Source of the DNA: Desulfomicrobium sp.
GTDB lineage: Bacteria > Desulfobacterota > Desulfovibrionia > Desulfovibrionales > Desulfomicrobiaceae
Direction: 5' to 3'
Assembly (NCBI GenBank): GCA_040768745.1
Contig: JAXGMI010000001.1
Span: 1,632,001-1,696,000, forward strand
DNA length: 64,000 nt
Part shown: positions 37,733 to 51,043 of the stretch, piece after piece
How positions within the stretch are numbered: the first letter of the stretch is position 1
Layout of the letters: each line of letters begins with the position of its first letter
The notes under the pieces: model-generated
What the model was told of the DNA's origin: nothing
Databases searched by the model: none
Seen by the model: only the letters and a program-made list of their open reading frames with translations
Position numbers and translations under genes: made by a program

Positions 37733-37763
37733 AAAGCCGGCTCCTGGTGGGGCCGGCTTTTTT
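37733..37763. terminator. Probably bidirectional terminator between USP copy 2 and the zraR-like gene
   Basis: AAAGCCGGCTCC-TGGT-GGGGCCGGCTTT with A-rich left flank and T-rich right flank. Confidence 0.85.
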
Positions 37764-39121
37764 CATCTGGTGGTCAGGCCATGTTTTTTCAGACGGTACT
37801 GCAGGGTGCGGCGGCTGATGCCCAGGGCCTGGGCCGTACGCTCGCGGTGCCCATGGCATTTGCGCAGAGTCTCCTCCAGCGCCTGGCGTTCGGCGAGTTC
37901 CAGTGGACTGTTCAGAACATGGAGACTGGGCTCAAGCAACGGTCTTTCTTTGTGTTGGAGGTGCTCTGGCAGATCACGCAGATCCAGGATGTCCCCTCGG
38001 CAGAGAATCAAGGATCGCTCCAGCACGTTTTCCAGCTCCCGCACGTTCCCACGCCATTCATGGCGGCCGAGGGCATCAAGGAATTCTCTGGATACCGATC
38101 GGATGGGTTTACTGTTTTTACGACCCAGCTTGGCAAGGAGAAAATCAACCAGCAAGGGGATGTCCTCCGGGCGTTCGCGCAGGGGGGGGATGCGTATTTC
38201 GAGGACGTTCAGACGGTAATACAGGTCTTCCCGGAATGTGCCTGCGGCAATCATGGCCGGCAGGTCACGGTTGGTGGCGGCAATGAAGCGCACGTCAACA
38301 TTGACCGGGGCCACGCCCCCCAGAGGCTCTACAATCCGTTCCTGCAGGGCTCGCAGGATTTTGGCCTGCAGGGTCAGGGGCAGTTCGCCGATTTCGTCCA
38401 GGAAAAGGGTCCCTCCGCTGGCCAACTGAAAGCGACCGGGTTTGTCCTGGGCCGCTCCGGTGAAGGCTCCGCGGATGTAGCCAAACAGTTCGCTCTCCAG
38501 CAGGCTTTCTGGCAGGGCTGCACAGTTGACCTTGATGAGCGGACCTTTGGCGCGCAAGCTGCGATCATGCAGGAGCTGGGCAGCCAGTTCCTTGCCTGTG
38601 CCGGATTCGCCGAGGATCAGGACATTGGCCTCGCTCGGTCCGACCTGTTCAATGAGCTCTACGACCCGGCGGATGGCTGCGCTGTCCCCGATAATGCGGG
38701 TTTCGCGCATCTGACCGATCTGCTTTTTCAATTCCCGGTTTTCCAAAGCCAGGCGGGAGTGCTCCACGGCTTTCTGGATCACAGCCAAAAGCTCGTCGTT
38801 GTCAGCAGGCTTGGTCAGGTAATGAAAAGCCCCGCTCTTCATGGCTTCCACCGCGCTGCCCACATTGCCAAAGGCAGTGAGCATGATCACCGGCGGAAAG
38901 GTTCCTTGTTCCTGGAGCCGCTGCAGCACCTCCAGGCCGTTCATGCCCGGCATGCGCATGTCGAGCAGAATGGCGTCAACCTGCTTGCTTCGCAGCAGAT
39001 TCAGACCCGTGGATCCGTTGTCGGCTTCGAGGACTTTGAACCCCGCATCACCCAGGACAACGCGGACCATGAGTCGGTGGGCTGGTTCATCGTCAATGAT
39101 CAGGACTGTGTGTTGCGTCAT
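37763..39121 (-). CDS. Sigma54-dependent response regulator (ZraR/NtrC-like)
   Basis: Receiver domain (DMRMP), GESGTGKE, GAFTGA, FLDEIGE, WRGNVREL, Fis-type HTH. Confidence 0.93.
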   Translation of the reverse strand: MTQHTVLIIDDEPAHRLMVRVVLGDAGFKVLEADNGSTGLNLLRSKQVDAILLDMRMPGMNGLEVLQRLQEQGTFPPVIMLTAFGNVGSAVEAMKSGAFHYLTKPADNDELLAVIQKAVEHSRLALENRELKKQIGQMRETRIIGDSAAIRRVVELIEQVGPSEANVLILGESGTGKELAAQLLHDRSLRAKGPLIKVNCAALPESLLESELFGYIRGAFTGAAQDKPGRFQLASGGTLFLDEIGELPLTLQAKILRALQERIVEPLGGVAPVNVDVRFIAATNRDLPAMIAAGTFREDLYYRLNVLEIRIPPLRERPEDIPLLVDFLLAKLGRKNSKPIRSVSREFLDALGRHEWRGNVRELENVLERSLILCRGDILDLRDLPEHLQHKERPLLEPSLHVLNSPLELAERQALEETLRKCHGHRERTAQALGISRRTLQYRLKKHGLTTR

Positions 39122-40809
39122 GCCAGGTTCTCGGCAGGTTGAGGGAAGAAGAGGGAAACAGTCGTTCCCTGGTTTGGGGTTGATGCAATGGACACTGAAC
39201 CGCCATGCTCCTGCATGATGCCGTGGACAATAGCGAGGCCTAAACCCGTTCCGTGATCACGAGTGGTGAAAAAGGGTTCCAGGGCGTGTTCCTGTTCTGC
39301 AGGGGTCATGCCGCGACCATTGTCCTGAACCCGAATCCACACACCGTGGGCACCAGACTCGCTGGTCAGCCGGATCAAGCCCCCAGCCTTCGGGATGGCT
39401 TCCAGGCTGTTTACGATCAGGTTGATAAGGGCCTGCTTGAGTGCATCACGGTCTGCATGCAGCGATCCTGCCTCCAGGTTTTCCTCCAGGCGGCATTGTT
39501 TGGTCTCCAGGTCCATACCCAGAAGGGTGCGCAATTCCCGGAGAATATCCGAAAGAGTGAGGAAGTTACAAGACAATTGGCGGGGCTTGGCCAGGAAAAG
39601 GAGGTCCGTGATGACTCGATTCAGGCGGTCAGCCTCCTGAACCATAGTCCGGGCGTAGAGCTCTTCCGGGTCTCGGCCGGCCAGTTTCTTGGAGAAGAAT
39701 TGGGCGAACCCCCGCAATGCCGAGAGGGGGTTGCGGATCTCGTGGGCCACTCCCGCGGCCATGCGGCCGATGGCGGCCAGTTTTTCATTGCGATGCAGCT
39801 CCTGCTCCAGACCGGCCAACTCGGTCCGGTCGCGGATGAGGATGAGCCCTTGCCCGGAACCGTCCTTGAGCGGAAGACGGAGGATCTCCAAGTTCTTGCC
39901 CGCTGTCGTGCATGTGCTCCACTCCTGTTCTCCTTGTGGGGGAAGGTTCAGTCCCAAGGAGCAGAAAAGGCGGGCAAAGGGCTGTCCGATGACATCCTGT
40001 CCCTCCAGAAGCATCAAGGCCGCAGGATTGGCAGCCATGACAGTGCCGTCAGCGGAAATGGTCAGCAGGCCGTCGGGCATGTTGTCCAGGAGACGGGCGT
40101 TGAAGGATTCCAGACGCTGCAATCGTCGGCCCTGGTCCTTTCGCTGCATGAAGCTCATGAACAGAATCCAGAACACAATGGTCACAGCCAAAATATAGCC
40201 GGTTTGCAGGATGGCTGTGCGCTTGTACTTGCTGAATGAGGCGAGATGTTGGGTCATATCCACGCCAATGAGCAGCAGTGGAGGCTGGCTGTCCGGTGGA
40301 CATTGGCCATCCGTGCATTGGCCGCCCACGGCCAAGTGGCTGATCCGACCCAGAACCAAGATGGGCTGACCTTCGAAATTCATCTCCCCGCTCCATTCCC
40401 CTGCATTGCCCATGCGTTCCCAGGCGATGGTTGGCAACTGAAGTTGAATGGATCTGGGATCGTTGTGCGAGGAAAAGAGGATGTGCCCCAGGGGATTGAA
40501 GAGGCCGATAAACCGGGCGTCGGTACGGGTGATGTATTCCTGCAGGAGGTCTTTGATCTGGTTCCGATGCATGAGCAGAGCCGCGTGGGAATGTGCCGCC
40601 GCAGCGGGCAGGTGCAGTTCCCGGCGCAGGTTGATCTCCATCCCGGCAGCGATAGAACGGGCGGTAACGAGGGCGTGTTCGCGAAAGGAGTCCTGCTGCT
40701 GACGCAAATTACGCCAGGTGGAGAAGCTGAGAGCTATGCCCAGGACAAATACGGCCAACGTGGCGACCAAGATCGTCGGGCCGCTTCGATCAGGAATGAC
40801 GACATCCAT
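39118..40809 (-). CDS. Sensor histidine kinase (ZraS-like)
   Basis: Two TM helices, PAS-like segment, AHEIRNPL H-box, N box, DNGRG, PFFTT, GTGLGL. Confidence 0.9.
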   Translation of the reverse strand: MDVVIPDRSGPTILVATLAVFVLGIALSFSTWRNLRQQQDSFREHALVTARSIAAGMEINLRRELHLPAAAAHSHAALLMHRNQIKDLLQEYITRTDARFIGLFNPLGHILFSSHNDPRSIQLQLPTIAWERMGNAGEWSGEMNFEGQPILVLGRISHLAVGGQCTDGQCPPDSQPPLLLIGVDMTQHLASFSKYKRTAILQTGYILAVTIVFWILFMSFMQRKDQGRRLQRLESFNARLLDNMPDGLLTISADGTVMAANPAALMLLEGQDVIGQPFARLFCSLGLNLPPQGEQEWSTCTTAGKNLEILRLPLKDGSGQGLILIRDRTELAGLEQELHRNEKLAAIGRMAAGVAHEIRNPLSALRGFAQFFSKKLAGRDPEELYARTMVQEADRLNRVITDLLFLAKPRQLSCNFLTLSDILRELRTLLGMDLETKQCRLEENLEAGSLHADRDALKQALINLIVNSLEAIPKAGGLIRLTSESGAHGVWIRVQDNGRGMTPAEQEHALEPFFTTRDHGTGLGLAIVHGIMQEHGGSVSIASTPNQGTTVSLFFPQPAENLA

Positions 40810-40830
40810 GCCGGCCTCGTTGAGCAAAAG

Positions 40831-40884: not shown

Positions 40885-41358
40885 TTACGTTCTTGAAGCG
40901 GACGGGCAACACGGGGCGGAACTGGTGCCGTTGCCAGCACCACTGGAGGTTGCTCTGCATTGTGGCCGTGGTCCGCAGCCTCTGCCGGATTCAAAAAGAA
41001 CAGGTTTCCCGGTGATCTCGGACAACTCCAGGCGGTAGTCGGCATTGAGCTTGTTCTTGTTCGCCTGCAGCTCGTTCACCTCGGCCATGATCTTGTCCAG
41101 GGACTTTTGGTCCACAGGTGTGCTGGCAAAGAGGTTTTCCATAGCCTGGTGCTTGGCGCTGAGCTCTTTGTGCAGGGCAAAAAGCCGTTCATGGTGAATG
41201 TCCGTGGCCTTCCGAACTTTTTCTTGCTGTTCCGGAGTCAGGCTGGACATGAAGTCCTGGTAGTGTCCCTGTCCCGGACAGCCGCCCTGGAAGGCCTGAG
41301 CTCCGGCTACAAGGGCCAGGGTCAGAACGAGGGCGGGTATGAGGTTCCTGAGGTACAT
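40885..41358 (-). CDS. Periplasmic heavy-metal sensor / ZraP-Spy-CpxP family protein
   Basis: Signal peptide ending AQA, LTPEQQ motif, helical-hairpin pattern; directly upstream of the kinase and regulator. Confidence 0.8.
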   Translation of the reverse strand: MYLRNLIPALVLTLALVAGAQAFQGGCPGQGHYQDFMSSLTPEQQEKVRKATDIHHERLFALHKELSAKHQAMENLFASTPVDQKSLDKIMAEVNELQANKNKLNADYRLELSEITGKPVLFESGRGCGPRPQCRATSSGAGNGTSSAPCCPSASRT

Positions 41359-41417: not shown

Positions 41418-41434
41418 AGCATGCTCCATGCCAA
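41418..41434 (-). promoter_or_regulatory. Sigma54 promoter of the zraP-like operon
   Basis: Minus strand TTGGCAT-GGAGC-ATGCT (GG-N10-GC); upstream AT tract with IHF-like TTTCAACGTGTTG. Confidence 0.7.
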
Positions 41435-41493
41435 TTTTTTCTATATTTTATTTCAACGTGTTGAATCTTGATTGAGCTGCGACGCATGGATTT

Positions 41494-41513
41494 ATGTGCT
41501 ATTTTTTGCACAT
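41494..41513. promoter_or_regulatory. Putative enhancer (UAS) palindrome for the sigma54 activator
   Basis: ATGTGC-TATTTTTT-GCACAT, 60-80 bp upstream of the sigma54 site. Confidence 0.55.
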
Positions 41514-41550
41514 ATTTCCGGATTGTGCAAGAGCGTGCGTCCACCCAGCC

Positions 41551-41577
41551 TTGCCTTTCCGGGGGAAAGTTTATAAT
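41551..41577 (+). promoter_or_regulatory. Putative sigma70 promoter of the His-rich peptide/cbiX unit with embedded palindrome
   Basis: Perfect TATAAT at 41572-41577; TTGCCT 15 nt upstream; CTTTCC-GGG-GGAAAG in between. Confidence 0.5.
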
Positions 41578-41625
41578 CTTAAAAAATTATGTTCGGCGTC
41601 TGCAAGCAGGCGCGAGGAGGCTCAG

Positions 41626-41793
41626 ATGTGCAAGGGATGCGGATGTCTGCGAGGCAAGACCACGGTCAAGGAAGTTCATCACGACCACGAACACAGCCAT
41701 GGGGATCTGACCCACAGTCACCCCCACGATCACGACCATGACCACACGCATGATGAAAACAGGCCTGTAGCGCACGAAGACCACAAGCATTGA
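41626..41793 (+). CDS. 55-aa CxxCGC / His-rich putative metal-binding peptide
   Basis: GAGGAGG RBS before ATG 41626; MCKGCGC N-terminus and 15 His in 55 residues. Confidence 0.8.
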   Translation: MCKGCGCLRGKTTVKEVHHDHEHSHGDLTHSHPHDHDHDHTHDENRPVAHEDHKH

Positions 41794-41844
41794 TTTGGTG
41801 GGGGGCTGCCCTCAAGGGCAGCCCGAGCTGTGGAGGACCGTCCC

Positions 41845-42249
41845 ATGACCAAGACGGGAATGATTGTGCTTGGGCACGGCAGCAGGCGCAGAGAAGTGGC
41901 GTCATCTTTCGAGGCCCTGGTCGGACGGGTGGCGGCCAGGGTGTCCGGAGCGCCGGTGCTTCCGGCTTTTTTCTCCTTAGGAGAACCGACCTTGGCCGAT
42001 CAGGTCCGAAAACTGACAGCTCAAGGGTGCAGTCGAATCGTCATCATGCAGTATTTTCTCTATAACGGGGTGCATATCGAGCACGATATCCCCAAAATGA
42101 TAGAGGGCCTCAAAGAAGAATTTCCCGGTGTTGCATTCGTGATTCAGCCAACGCTGGAAAACGACCCGGCCATGGAACAGCTGCTGGTGGAGAGACTGCT
42201 GACGGCCATGGACATGCAGGAGGAGAGCAGCCCTCCAGTGAAGACATAG
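41845..42249 (+). CDS. cbiX: Small single-domain CbiX/SirB-type sirohydrochlorin chelatase
   Basis: IVLGHGSRR and YFLYNGVHIEHDIP carry both chelatase His ligands; GGAGG RBS; 134 aa. Confidence 0.85.
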   Translation: MTKTGMIVLGHGSRRREVASSFEALVGRVAARVSGAPVLPAFFSLGEPTLADQVRKLTAQGCSRIVIMQYFLYNGVHIEHDIPKMIEGLKEEFPGVAFVIQPTLENDPAMEQLLVERLLTAMDMQEESSPPVKT

Positions 42250-42390
42250 CCAGCGCAGAAGGCTAAAGCCAGCGCAGAAGGCTAAAGCCAGCGCAGAAGG
42301 CTAAAGCCAGCGCAGAAGGCTAAAGCCAGCGCAGAAGGCTAAAGCCAGCGCAGAAGGCTAAAGCCAGCGCAGAAGGCTAAAGCCAGCGCA
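42248..42390. repeat. Perfect tandem array of AGCCAGCGCAGAAGGCTAA (19 bp x 7, plus 10 bp)
   Basis: Units start at 42248, 42267, 42286, 42305, 42324, 42343, 42362 and a partial at 42381; no mismatches, no spacers. Confidence 0.98.
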
Positions 42391-46553: not shown

Positions 46554-47222
46554 TCAGCCGAGGACTGCTGTCTTGAAGGCCTGATGGCGGGTGGAATAGG
46601 GCGGATAACCAAAAAAGGCGGAGCCGGACACGAGCACGTCCGCACCAAGCTCGGAGAGTTCCCGGGCATTTTCCAGGGTCACTCCTCCATCGACCTGGAC
46701 AAGGGTGCTGAGGTTTCTGGCTTTGATCATCGCGGACACGTCTTTGATCTTGTCCTTGCAGAAGGGAATGAAGGATTGCCCTCCGAATCCAGGGTTGACG
46801 GTCATGATCAGAACCATGTCCAGCTGGGGCAAAACATAGTCAACAACGGCCAGGGGCGTGGCGGGGTTGAGAGACAGGCCGACGCGCATGCCCGCCTCAC
46901 GGATGGCGCTCAACGAGCGTTCGAGATGTATGGTGCTTTCAGCGTGGATGCACAGCAGATCTGCTCCGGCTCCGGCGAAGTCGTTGATGTACCGTTCCGG
47001 CCGTTCAATCATCAGGTGAACGTCGAAAAAGAGGCTGGAGGTCCTGCGCAGGGCTTTGATCACCGGAGGGCCGAAGGTGATATTGGGCACGAAGGCTCCG
47101 TCCATGACATCCCAGTGCACCCACTGCAGACCCGCCTTTTCCAGTGCCTCCAACTCAGCCTGCAGGTTGCCGAAATCCGAGGACAGAAGGGACGGAGACA
47201 GGATGAATTCCCTGGCCATCAT
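46554..47222 (-). CDS. rpe: Ribulose-phosphate 3-epimerase
   Basis: SPSLLS, HWDVMDG.FVPNITFG, DVHLMI, MTVNPGFGGQ, VDGG. Confidence 0.97.
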   Translation of the reverse strand: MMAREFILSPSLLSSDFGNLQAELEALEKAGLQWVHWDVMDGAFVPNITFGPPVIKALRRTSSLFFDVHLMIERPERYINDFAGAGADLLCIHAESTIHLERSLSAIREAGMRVGLSLNPATPLAVVDYVLPQLDMVLIMTVNPGFGGQSFIPFCKDKIKDVSAMIKARNLSTLVQVDGGVTLENARELSELGADVLVSGSAFFGYPPYSTRHQAFKTAVLG

Positions 47223-47671
47223 TCCTCTCCCATTTTGAAATCGACCTGGATTTTGAACATCTTGGTCGCCGGCAGGTTCAAGATGGGCACCCCGGTCTTG
47301 CTGGTCACTTCAGCCAGAGTCGCCTGCACCTCTTCCCAGGATGGGGCTATGAAGGTGAACCATACGTTCTGACGATGAGCCCGCAGGTAGTTATGGGTCA
47401 CGCCCGGAAGACGGTTCACTTCAGCGATGAACGTGTCCAGCTTTTCGTCCGGCACGGCGGCCGAGCAGAGGGTTGAACGCCAGCCGAGCTTTCCGGACTG
47501 GAAATTGGCTCCGATGCGGCGGATGACCCCTTTTTCCGTCAAGGTCCGCACCCGGGCCAGGGTTTCAGCCTCGGTCAGTCCGACTTGGCGGCCTATTTCT
47601 GAGTAGGGGCGCTTCTCCAGGGGAAAAGCGGTCTGGATGATGTCCAGTATTTTTTTGTCGAAGTTGTCCAT
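47219..47671 (-). CDS. ahbA: Siroheme decarboxylase alpha subunit (AsnC-like)
   Basis: QTAFPLEKRPY, GVIRRIGANF, GVTHNYLR, NVWFT; in the ahb cluster. Confidence 0.88.
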   Translation of the reverse strand: MDNFDKKILDIIQTAFPLEKRPYSEIGRQVGLTEAETLARVRTLTEKGVIRRIGANFQSGKLGWRSTLCSAAVPDEKLDTFIAEVNRLPGVTHNYLRAHRQNVWFTFIAPSWEEVQATLAEVTSKTGVPILNLPATKMFKIQVDFKMGEE

Positions 47672-47683
47672 CGGCGCCCCGGA

Positions 47684-48862
47684 TCAGGGTTTTTGCTGGC
47701 CTGCGAGTTTGGGGGTGTAGGAGCAGAGGGGTTCCTCGCCCATGTAATTGTGGTCCATGGAATGGGCCCTGGCCCGGCATCCGCCGCAAACCTTATGATA
47801 TTCGCAGATCCCGCATTTGCCTTCGTACTCGTCCTGATTGCGGAACTGCTTGAACTGTTTGGAGCTTTTCCAGATTTCGGGGAAGCGGGTTGTGCGCACG
47901 TTGCCGCAGTCCAGCTCCAGGTAACCGCATGGCTGCACCTGGCCCACGTGGGAAATAAAGCAAAATCCCGTACCGCCCAGACAGCCCCTGGTCATGGCGT
48001 CCAGCCCGAAGTTTTCCACCGTCACGGGCACGCCCTCTGCCTTGGCCCGCTGGCGCATGATGCGGTAATAGTGCGGGGCACAAGTGGCCTTCAGGTGCAT
48101 CTTCGTGGTCTTGCGGAAGTCGTAGAACCAGTTCAGCACGTCCTCGTACTCCTGGGCCGTGATGACTTCAGCTCCCAGCTGGGCAGCCCGGCCGGTGGGC
48201 ACCAGAAGGAAGATGTGCCAGGCTGCGGCTCCAAGACTTTGGCACAGGTCGAAAATCTGCTTGAAGCTGCCGAGATTCGCCCTGGTTACCGTGGTGTTGA
48301 TCTGGAATTCGATGCCTGCCGCCTTCAAATACCCGATGCCGCGCATGGACGCGTCAAAAGCGCCCTGCACACCCCGGAATTCGTCGTGACTGGCTGCGTC
48401 AGGGCCATCGATGGAGATGGAGCAGCGCTGCACCCCCGCCTCGCGCATCATGGCGCCCGTTTCCGGGGTGATGAGGGTCCCGTTGGGAGACATGACGCAG
48501 CGCAACCCCTTGTCCGTGGCGTAGCGGATCAGTTCGTATACGTCGGGACGCATCATGGGGTCACCGCCAGTGAAGATGATGATGGGGTTGCCCACTTCGG
48601 GGAAGGTGTCGATGAGTGCTTTGGCCTCGACCGTGTCCAGTTCGCCCTCATAGGGCTCGAGGCGGGCTTCGGCCCGGCAGTGCTTGCAGGCCAAGTTGCA
48701 GGATCGGGTCACTTCCCAGGCGATGAGCTTGCATGCCGGAGAGCCGTCGGCCAGGGTTCTGATCATGCCACCGGGATGGCCGCCGGGCTTGGTTCCCGGG
48801 TGAGCTGTTGGATGGGCGCCCAGATTGCCGAGGCCTTTGCCGTGTTGGGTATGGCTGTGCAT
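47684..48862 (-). CDS. ahbD: Radical SAM heme b synthase
   Basis: WEVTRSCNLACKHCRA, KATCAPHYYR, GCLGG, SPASM CxxC...CGGCRARA. Confidence 0.92.
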   Translation of the reverse strand: MHSHTQHGKGLGNLGAHPTAHPGTKPGGHPGGMIRTLADGSPACKLIAWEVTRSCNLACKHCRAEARLEPYEGELDTVEAKALIDTFPEVGNPIIIFTGGDPMMRPDVYELIRYATDKGLRCVMSPNGTLITPETGAMMREAGVQRCSISIDGPDAASHDEFRGVQGAFDASMRGIGYLKAAGIEFQINTTVTRANLGSFKQIFDLCQSLGAAAWHIFLLVPTGRAAQLGAEVITAQEYEDVLNWFYDFRKTTKMHLKATCAPHYYRIMRQRAKAEGVPVTVENFGLDAMTRGCLGGTGFCFISHVGQVQPCGYLELDCGNVRTTRFPEIWKSSKQFKQFRNQDEYEGKCGICEYHKVCGGCRARAHSMDHNYMGEEPLCSYTPKLAGQQKP

Positions 48863-49839
48863 CAGAGATGTCCCGCCTTGAGCAGATCATTGGTGAAGTA
48901 CGAGAGGATCAGGTCGGCCCCGGCTCGTTTAAGGGCCAGGAGGCTTTCCATGGCCACGGCCGTCTCGTCGATCCATCCGTTCATGGCCGCGGCTTTGATC
49001 TGGCTGTATTCCCCACTGACCTGGTACGCGGCGACAGGCAGGTCGAATCTGTCCCGGACCTGCCGAATGATGTCAAGATATGGCAATCCCGGCTTGACCA
49101 TGAGGATGTCCGCTCCTTCGGCCACATCGGCGGCTGCCTCGCGCAGCCCCTCCCGGCCGTTGCCCGGGTCCATCTGGTAGGTCTTGCGGTCCCCGAATTT
49201 GGGGGCGCTTTCTGCGGCGTCCCGGAACGGCCCGTAGAAGGCAGAAGCATACTTGACCGCGTAGGACATGATCGGCGTGTTGAGAAATCCCGCCCCATCC
49301 AGGGCCTGGCGTATGGCCGCCACGCGACCGTCCATCATGTCTGAAGGGGCGATGATATCCGCTCCGGCTTGGGCCTGGGCCACGGCGGTGCGGGCCAGAA
49401 GTTCCAGGGTCGGGTCGTTCTGCACCTCGCCCACTGGGGAGACCAGGCCACAATGCCCGTGGGAGGTGTACTCGCAAAGACATGTGTCAGCCACGACGAT
49501 GAGTTCGGGCCATCTGCCCTTGATCTGACGGATGGCCCGCTGCACGATACCCGCATCAGCGTAGGCCTGGGAACCGGCAGGGTCTTTTTGGACCGGGATG
49601 CCGAAAAGGATGAGACTTTGAAGCCCCGCATGCACCGCTTCGCCGACTTCGGCCATGAGCTGGGACAGGCCCAGCTGGAACTGGCCAGGCATGGAGGCGA
49701 TGGGTTTTCTGAAATCAGGGTCCGACTCCACCACGAAATAGGGCTGGATCAGATCTTCCCTGCCCAACCGGGTCTCGCGGACCATATCCCGCAACGCCTT
49801 GGATGAACGCAGCCGGCGGCCGCGATAGAACGAACGCAT
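48862..49839 (-). CDS. hemB: Porphobilinogen synthase
   Basis: [41 protein letters not shown]. Confidence 0.97.
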
Positions 49840-49849
49840 GACGCCCTCC

Positions 49850-51043
49850 CTAGATCGGCTCGCCGCTGATTTCCTCGTCCGTCAGGTAGCAGGCCGGATC
49901 GTGGGCCCAGAAATCATCATAAAAAGCTTCGGCCCGGGCCCGGAAATTGCCGCCGCAGATGTTCAGGAACCGGCAGGTGGCACATCGCCCCTTCACGTGC
50001 GGCCGCTTGTCCTTCAGTTTGTGCAGCAGTTCTATGCCCTCGTCCATCCAGATCTCGGAGAAGGGGCGCTGGAGTACGTTCCCGAAGGTGTGATGGCGCA
50101 TGAACTGGTCCGCGTGCACCGAGCCGTCCCAGGAAATACACCCGATGCCCCGGCCGGAGGAGTTGCCCTCATTCATTTTGAGGAGTTCCAGTACTTCAGC
50201 CGCGCGCTTGGGATCCTCCTTCAAAAGACGATAGTATACGTAAGGCCCGTCGGCGTGGTTGTCCACGGTCAGAACTTCCTTGGGCAGGCCTCTGTCGTGC
50301 AGGTCCCGGGTCCGGTCCATGATCAGGTCCACTACAGCCCTGGTTTCGGCATGATCCAGGTCTTCTTTGATCAGCTCAGAGCCGCGACCAGAATACACCA
50401 GATGGTAAAAACAGATTCTCGGCACGTTCATGGTCTCGATCAGATTGAAGAGGTGGGGGATCTCGGCGGCGTTTCTTTTGTTGATGGTGAAGCGCAATCC
50501 GACCTTGAGTCCCTCGGCCTGGCAGTTCTCCACGCCCTTCAAGGCCTGTCTGTAGGATCCGGAAACCCCTCGGAATTGGTCATGCACAGTCTCGGCGCCG
50601 TCCAGGGAGATGCCGACATAGGACAGCCCGACTTCTTTGAGTTCCCGGGCCTTGGCCTTGGTGATGAGGGTGCCATTGGTGGAGATGACGGCGCGCATGC
50701 CCTTGGATGTAGCGTATTTGGCCAGTTCGACCAGATCTTCGCGGACCAGGGGCTCGCCGCCGGAGAAAAGCATGACCGGCGCCCCAAATCGGGCCAGGTC
50801 GTCGATGATGGTCTTGGCCTGATCCGTGGAAATGGGATCCTTATGGCTGCTCGGCTCCACGGCGTGGGCGTAGCAGTGCACGCATTTCAGGTTGCAGCGC
50901 TGGGTCATGTTCCAGACCACAACGGGTTTCTTGTCTTTGGCGAATTGCAGCAGATGGGAGGGAAGCTGGGAGGAGTGGCGCCCGTAGCGCAGGGCATCGG
51001 ATGGTTCCACAGTGCCGCAGTACAATTTCGAGATACCGATCAT
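49850..51043 (-). CDS. ahbC: Radical SAM Fe-coproporphyrin synthase
   Basis: [47 protein letters not shown]. Confidence 0.92.

Follow-up and report, generated by a model that had tools for sequence, protein, structure and literature searches.

The closest described counterparts of the gene product reported here are segments of proteins, or whole small proteins, that hold metal, or are proposed to do so, through Cys and His. In Escherichia coli, HypB carries CxxCGC at residues 2 to 7, directly behind the initiator Met, and a low-complexity, His-rich stretch comes next. Cys2, Cys5, and Cys7 form a picomolar Ni(II) site with the N-terminal amine. The isolated extension has no ordered structure; it touches both the G-domain and SlyD and is required for hydrogenase maturation (passages of PMC12284835). 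The same passages present the SlyD tail of E. coli as a disordered, His/Cys-rich nickel reservoir that feeds HypB. Further His-rich heads occur in the HypB proteins of Bradyrhizobium and Rhizobium, that of B. japonicum holding 9 Ni per monomer and also taking Zn, Cu, Co, Cd, and Mn (PMC7055735, in part). Hpn, from gastric Helicobacter, is a 60-aa nickel store with 28 His that contacts HypA and HypB (PMC4671568, in part). Finally, the class II chelatase CbiX-L bears a Cys/His-rich C-terminal extension, a His-rich Fe-S segment proposed for metal storage (PMC7689651, in part). How nickel is stored and moved for the NiFe(Se) hydrogenases of sulfate reducers is poorly known, and the fused GTPase makes it difficult in E. 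coli to say what the high-affinity site of HypB itself contributes.

The window analyzed here, a 64,000-nt stretch of the genome of a Desulfomicrobium species, contains a separate gene for a microprotein that combines such a Cys head with a His-rich tail (Table 1). Translation gives the 55 residues, 15 of them His, that the first-pass annotation had read from the sequence, and the strong ribosome-binding site that it named is in place. As it also stated, the ORF list makes the gene visible solely within a longer frame (41494-41793), there is no GTPase domain, and a chelatase gene follows. The upstream TATAAT that it pointed out is present, and the TTGCCT/TATAAT pair, read by eye, is kept 5′ of the members from the genus Desulfomicrobium; a sigma-70 promoter scan nevertheless made no call upstream of the gene, because the spacer is 15 nt. 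An alternative −10 element, TAATCT, would give 17-nt spacing. Across the whole 3.09-Mb genome, a pattern scan for GGAG followed by MCxxCGC finds a single site, that of this microprotein. The gene is readily overlooked or annotated with a wrong start, and 7 of 12 other database proteins carry upstream extensions.

Table 1. Features of the microprotein locus (positions within the window)
Feature	Position	Strand	Basis
Sigma-54 response regulator, after the histidine kinase	37763-39121	-	neighbor of divergent system
Histidine kinase, after the ZraP-like gene	39118-40827	-	neighbor of divergent system
ZraP-like gene, divergent	40885..41358	-	PF13801; Zra models below cut-offs
Probable sigma-70-type promoter, TTGCCT (41551-41556) and TATAAT (41572-41577), 15-nt spacer	41551..41577	+	sequence
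Ribosome-binding site GAGGAGG, 5 nt 5′ of the ATG	41614..41620	+	sequence
55-aa MCxxCGC/His-repeat microprotein gene	41626..41793	+	ORF, conservation, dN/dS
CxxCGC head, codons 2-7 (Cys2, Cys5, Cys7), predicted amine plus three-thiolate Ni site	41629..41646	+	motif; chemistry from E. coli HypB
Alternating-His segment with GD turn, codons 19-40, probable beta-hairpin with His on one face	41680..41745	+	motif; hairpin modeled in a 106-aa member
9-bp GC hairpin between microprotein gene and cbiX	41803..41824	+	sequence
Small CbiX-type class II chelatase, 134 aa, the genome's only CbiX	41845..42249	+	PF01903, E 5e-24

The ORF is a conserved gene under purifying selection. A full-length match was found in 24/24 genomes searched from the same genus, and in all 20 same-genus loci that were read, the exact start, stop, and ribosome-binding site are preserved, the upstream frame is not, and cbiX lies within ∼110 nt on the 3′ side. 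Among 21 genes of 55 codons, the median dN/dS is 0.10 (98 of 210 pairs, taken at pS 0.05-0.7), variable columns number 18, 23, and 52 at codon positions 1, 2, and 3, and 24 of the 26 invariant residues show synonymous variation. Copies in Desulfomicrobium sp. records are 78-85% identical. RNA-library contigs, which attest presence and cannot rank expression, span the ORF wholly or partly in three of four runs, with none in run X10; two studies give contigs at 41602-41830 and 41603-41799, and a third gives one at 41688-42277. The shared left end at 41602/41603 is a weak hint, as is the end of one contig at 41830, just past the GC hairpin, which lacks a T-run in the window genome and has one in most relatives.

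To delimit the family, 301 genomes of the order Desulfovibrionales were searched for a ribosome-binding site followed by MCxxC[G/N..]C. The homologue search that the first-pass annotation had proposed was productive: the pattern matched 90 genomes against 4 matches for a reversed control, and a free, His-rich MCxxCGC ORF is present in 79, of which 74 were read directly and 5 were accepted by a full-length profile match (E ≤ 1.3e-19). The remaining 11 (G040, G052, G506, G541, G548, G602, G627, G631, G641, G666, and G675) were dropped on reading as nonfamily. Four putative MCxxCGC micropeptides of 14-18 aa were also rejected, each lying, by eye, in frame at the 3′ terminus of a longer coding region. 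No HypB was found among the order's pattern matches that were read. Profile A1 under-detects long-tailed members (57/301 genomes), and a wide profile also draws unrelated His-rich proteins; for this reason, the family was counted from ORFs that had been read. Nearly all Desulfomicrobiaceae genomes have the gene (27/29); elsewhere its occurrence is patchy, with 0/49 in one large genus.

The 80 distinct members, 78 of them complete, range from 53 to 136 aa with 22-44% His. Spacing between successive His is 2 in 1,451 of 1,845 cases, and the alternating-His/GD-turn motif is found in 69/80 members. Residue 6 is Gly in 75, Asn in 4, and Ala in 1 of these members, which were gathered by the head motif, while residues other than Cys and His vary strongly. 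GGAG stands 4-12 nt ahead of the ATG in 80/80, partly a selection effect, since many members were collected with a GGAG pattern. AlphaFold is uninformative for the window peptide (pLDDT 58, pTM 0.13), which is predicted to be largely disordered. For a 106-aa member, it models a beta-hairpin (27-43/49-65) with pLDDT 78-91 across residues 31-60; because the His alternate, one face of such a hairpin would carry them.

No named family emerged from Pfam, from NCBIfam above cut-off, from PDB sequences, or from the ESM Atlas, whose first cluster consists of 61 "hypothetical" members and may be the microprotein's own. Two source-named members among 10 proteins looked up are both annotated as hypothetical. 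A search of 1.84 billion representatives returned 16 matches, comprising 13 members or close variants, one 124-aa variant, a HypB fragment, and an unrelated 1,553-aa protein. In the full-text literature (main texts, with few subscription journals), no paper was found on a free MCxxCGC His-rich protein or its family. The family is thus real and order-wide, and apparently an undescribed variant of a metal-handling module. Variants were seen at its edges: a 106-aa protein that has lost the Cys head (L172:2489-2809, plus strand) and a 124-aa protein with two CxxC pairs and a duplicated His hairpin (L026:1124-1500, minus strand). A second family of ∼85 aa with alternating His and no Cys head (L173-L176, L179, and L180-L186; for example, L179:2506-2769, minus strand) occurs mostly in genomes with no MCxxCGC pattern match, and one of its genes converges on nikR. 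This Cys-free family is possibly a functional replacement for the microprotein.

Similarity searches bear out the likeness to the HypB nickel site and His linker on which the first-pass annotation was built. The family profile retrieved 94 longer proteins; 79 are HypB with an MCxxCGC start, and no chelatase is among them. Some HypB heads share an HxHxH-turn-HSHPH repeat with the microprotein, and one aligns with 22/44 identities, His hairpin included. Of 11 Cys-bearing members scanned against NCBIfam, 10 rank HypB_prefix_1 (NF053667) first, and no score reaches its cut-off of 30 bits: the window peptide scores 21.6, the best of 13 proteins scanned scores 27.6, and the genome search gives 29.2. 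In a shuffle control, the observed likeness to HypB heads was reached by 0/200 under both designs, a result biased by the fact that the targets came from the microprotein family's own profile.

Within the order itself, HypB is short wherever it was read: 31 genes in 28 genomes all lack an N-terminal extension and encode 217-235 aa starting at the G-domain. For the phylum's other orders, 387 genomes were searched with a somewhat stricter pattern, which gave 53 sites in 52 of them; reading 49 of these sites showed 34 HypB genes with a fused head, 15 sites of other kinds, and not one free His-rich peptide. The head thus stands alone in this order and is joined to HypB in the others, and the free microprotein and the HypB-fused extension have a complementary distribution. 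Apart from the G3E GTPase domain (TIGR00073) that it lacks, the microprotein differs from the HypB extension in having its own probable promoter, ribosome-binding site, and conserved stop, in occurring where HypB has no extension, and in lying, as far as neighbors were scanned, neither beside hypA nor in a hyp or hydrogenase cluster. Like the extension, it is largely disordered, in its case by prediction.

The nickel setting of the window genome is also relevant. It encodes NikR and two NiFe-family hydrogenase large subunits, one with the in-frame TGA expected for NiFeSe, and no CODH above cut-off. Its SlyD-like protein (141 aa) has no His/Cys tail, and the microprotein, for its part, has no PPIase domain. 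Hpn and Hpn-2 resemble the microprotein as small, stand-alone, His-rich proteins of ∼60 aa with a few Cys. By description, however, the His of Hpn cluster in runs where those of the microprotein alternate, and Hpn has two Cys pairs in place of a HypB-type N-terminal site. Hpn expression depends on NikR; no conserved NikR box was found upstream of the microprotein genes in a search whose positive control was weak. On our best reading, the microprotein would be like Hpn or the HypB head in function and a member of neither family, Hpn being set apart by description.

We consider it somewhat more probable than not that the microprotein is a small cytoplasmic nickel store or buffer, derived from the HypB N-terminal extension and encoded as a separate gene. 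This reading follows from the pairing of a HypB-type tight site with a tail suited to several ions, in cells that have neither a HypB head nor a SlyD tail. Removal of Met1 is expected where residue 2 is small, and since Cys2 is small, Met1 would be cleaved and the freed amine would form, with Cys2, Cys5, and Cys7, one very tight, square-planar Ni(II) site of the type described for E. coli HypB. Metal binding would then fold the alternating-His tail into a hairpin that holds several further ions weakly, as in His-rich HypB heads and Hpn; tail length, the main difference within the family, would set capacity. Ni(II) would thereby be buffered between uptake and a route through HypA and short HypB to the NiFe and NiFeSe hydrogenases, and the peptide would replace the two E. 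coli stores missing from the window genome, the HypB head and the SlyD tail. It would probably also take Zn, Co, and Cu to some degree. The microprotein is accordingly a candidate for a second, independent Hpn-like nickel store, and because it offers the head as a free, synthesizable 54-residue peptide in culturable bacteria, it makes the question of the HypB site testable.

The metal store or chaperone role that the first-pass annotation offered is compatible with these data. Of its two proposed clients, CbiX and NiFe(Se) hydrogenase maturation, the hydrogenase option gains, since the distribution complements that of HypB extensions. The same complementarity, together with short HypB in 16/16 peptide-positive genomes tested, would also fit a split HypB. 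Here the peptide would bind the short HypB G-domain in trans (possibly also the tail-less SlyD) and either pass on Ni(II) or gate the GTPase cycle, as the extension does in E. coli while covalently attached; the isolated E. coli extension also touches both of these partners, and hydrogenase maturation depends on it (passages of PMC12284835). In its strict form, HypB would have split in the ancestor of the order, its regulatory head becoming a free gene that acts in trans on the bare G-domain. This would yield a natural two-piece HypB, with a storage capacity tuned by tail length and a high-affinity site whose disputed role could be probed by a small deletion or by mixing purified parts. We nevertheless regard both the trans-acting role and the ancestral split as unlikely. 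The peptide stands beside hypAB in no locus read, and its variable non-Cys/His residues are unlike a fixed interface. Of 14 genomes tested that lack the peptide, 11 still encode a short HypB, as do 5/5 of another genus, so the peptide is dispensable. Against the strict form, the His hairpin motif also appears in CbiO tails, permease loops, and Fur extensions, so that convergence or module shuffling is possible. In a HypB tree of 74 rows, the 28 main short HypBs form one group (86/99) within a polytomy, and short HypBs do not fall inside an extension-bearing clade; the tree gives no direction of change because the outgroups sampled are extension-bearing only. Dispensability, the wider spread of the hairpin, and the tree also weigh against the nickel-store reading, as do the HypB_prefix_1 scores below cut-off, the lack of hyp or NiFe-hydrogenase genes among the neighbors scanned, and the lack of a conserved metal-regulator box upstream.

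Neighborhoods and regulation bear on whether the microprotein has a dedicated client at all. Outside the lineage with cbiX, neighborhoods vary widely and consist mostly of housekeeping genes; no hyp or NiFe-hydrogenase genes adjoin the microprotein among the neighbors scanned, while FeFe-hydrogenase genes flank two members and hydF flanks several. In one bacterial family, 5/5 His-rich members read adjoin metal or cofactor uptake genes, and other members flank zupT, DUF4198, or family-5 ABC binding proteins, both observations standing without a background rate. In the family with the uptake genes, one member is convergent with a DUF4198-NikL-like-CbiM-CbiQ-CbiO operon, which carries a NikR-like site at 2 mismatches. 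Upstream of the microprotein genes themselves, NikR, Zur, and Fur boxes (consensus from PMC545781, in part) are not conserved, with 4, 2, 7, 1, and 1 of 80 at loose thresholds and a weak own-genome positive control. A free search for dyads gave no clear family-wide motif, the best reaching 7/57 against a shuffle maximum of 4.

Such variety would suit a general sink for excess Zn, Cu, Ni, and Co with no dedicated client, an explanation that we find improbable. Consistent with it are the gene's own probable promoter and, usually, a terminator-like element (3′ of 48/78 members against 5/234 shuffles), the divergent placement beside a ZraP-like system in Desulfomicrobium, a position 5′ of zupT in one genome, and the presence of the Cys-free His-rich family in genera with no MCxxCGC family. 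His-rich HypB heads and Hpn, moreover, take many metals (PMC7055735 and PMC4671568, in part). Yet members across the order retain the exact HypB-type head starting at residue 2, which would be superfluous for a nonspecific sink, and the gene has no Zur box upstream. The zraP-like gene, furthermore, has a separate sigma-54-type element (41418-41434, minus strand, identified by eye against the consensus), and its kinase/regulator system is probably controlled separately from the microprotein gene. Several TGCA-containing palindromes, also seen by eye, lie within 41418-41530, between the zraP-like gene and the microprotein promoter, and are probably activator sites of the divergent system.

The other proposed client was the chelatase next door. 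The microprotein would then be a metal donor (Co or Fe, for cobalamin or siroheme) to the downstream small CbiX and a detached equivalent of the CbiX-L extension, which it resembles in placing a Cys motif and a His-rich segment by a class II chelatase in Desulfomicrobium. One RNA contig runs from the microprotein gene into cbiX, although it is no proof of a single transcript, and the genome's lone CbiK match, encoded together with an ABC transporter, opens by eye with a hydrophobic, signal-like stretch. We judge this option quite improbable, and it has weakened since it was proposed, because cbiX lies directly 3′ of 26/80 members, 25 of them in Desulfomicrobium, with a terminator-like element usually between. 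A further 4 members have cbiX at 1.6-4.7 kb, and none was seen for ∼50 members in 0-11.7 kb of downstream DNA; the link to a chelatase is thus confined to one lineage. In CbiX-L, the motif is MxCxxC, an Fe-S motif fused to the chelatase, as opposed to MCxxCGC in a separate ORF in 20/20 loci here, and the longer relatives of the microprotein are HypB. Two Desulfomicrobiaceae genomes with no peptide also lack hypB, NiFe hydrogenase, and cbiX; they represent one small-genome lineage, so this co-loss does not separate Ni from Co. Beyond cbiX, 7.5 perfect copies of a 19-bp unit begin at its stop codon (42248-42390); no further copy is present in the genome or in the relatives' loci examined, and the array may reflect recent expansion or an assembly artifact. 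An alternative heme cluster (ahbC, hemB, ahbD, and an ahbA-like gene; 47219-51043, minus strand) lies 5-9 kb from the small CbiX gene.

That the ORF arose by chance or is the remnant of a decayed hypB, as the lack of a Pfam family or of an NCBIfam family at E up to 1e-5 might suggest, is hardly credible given the selection, the kept start and stop, the spread across the order, and an intact hypB at C2:271424-272059, on another contig and adjoining a gene recognized by eye as hypA-like; the view that this is a stand-alone gene thus holds.

MCxxCGC starts were also seen on other proteins in the phylum. Stand-alone ORFs of 10-11 codons with an MCxxCGC head and a Gly/Lys end (L223:1513, plus strand; L224:1521, minus strand; L226:1513, plus strand) were found in one family that does not belong to the order, in three genomes, each with a strong ribosome-binding site and a hairpin downstream, and could encode a minimal metal-binding peptide. 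Conserved Cys-rich microproteins of 34-38 aa that begin MCxxCGC (L218, L225, L255, L256, L257, L259, and L260) occur in several families of the phylum; the three scanned gave no NCBIfam match, and by composition they would be metallothionein-like. Finally, L234:1511-2311 (plus strand) encodes a MinD/ParA-like ATPase of 267 aa, possibly CooC-like, with an MCxxCGC start and a few His.
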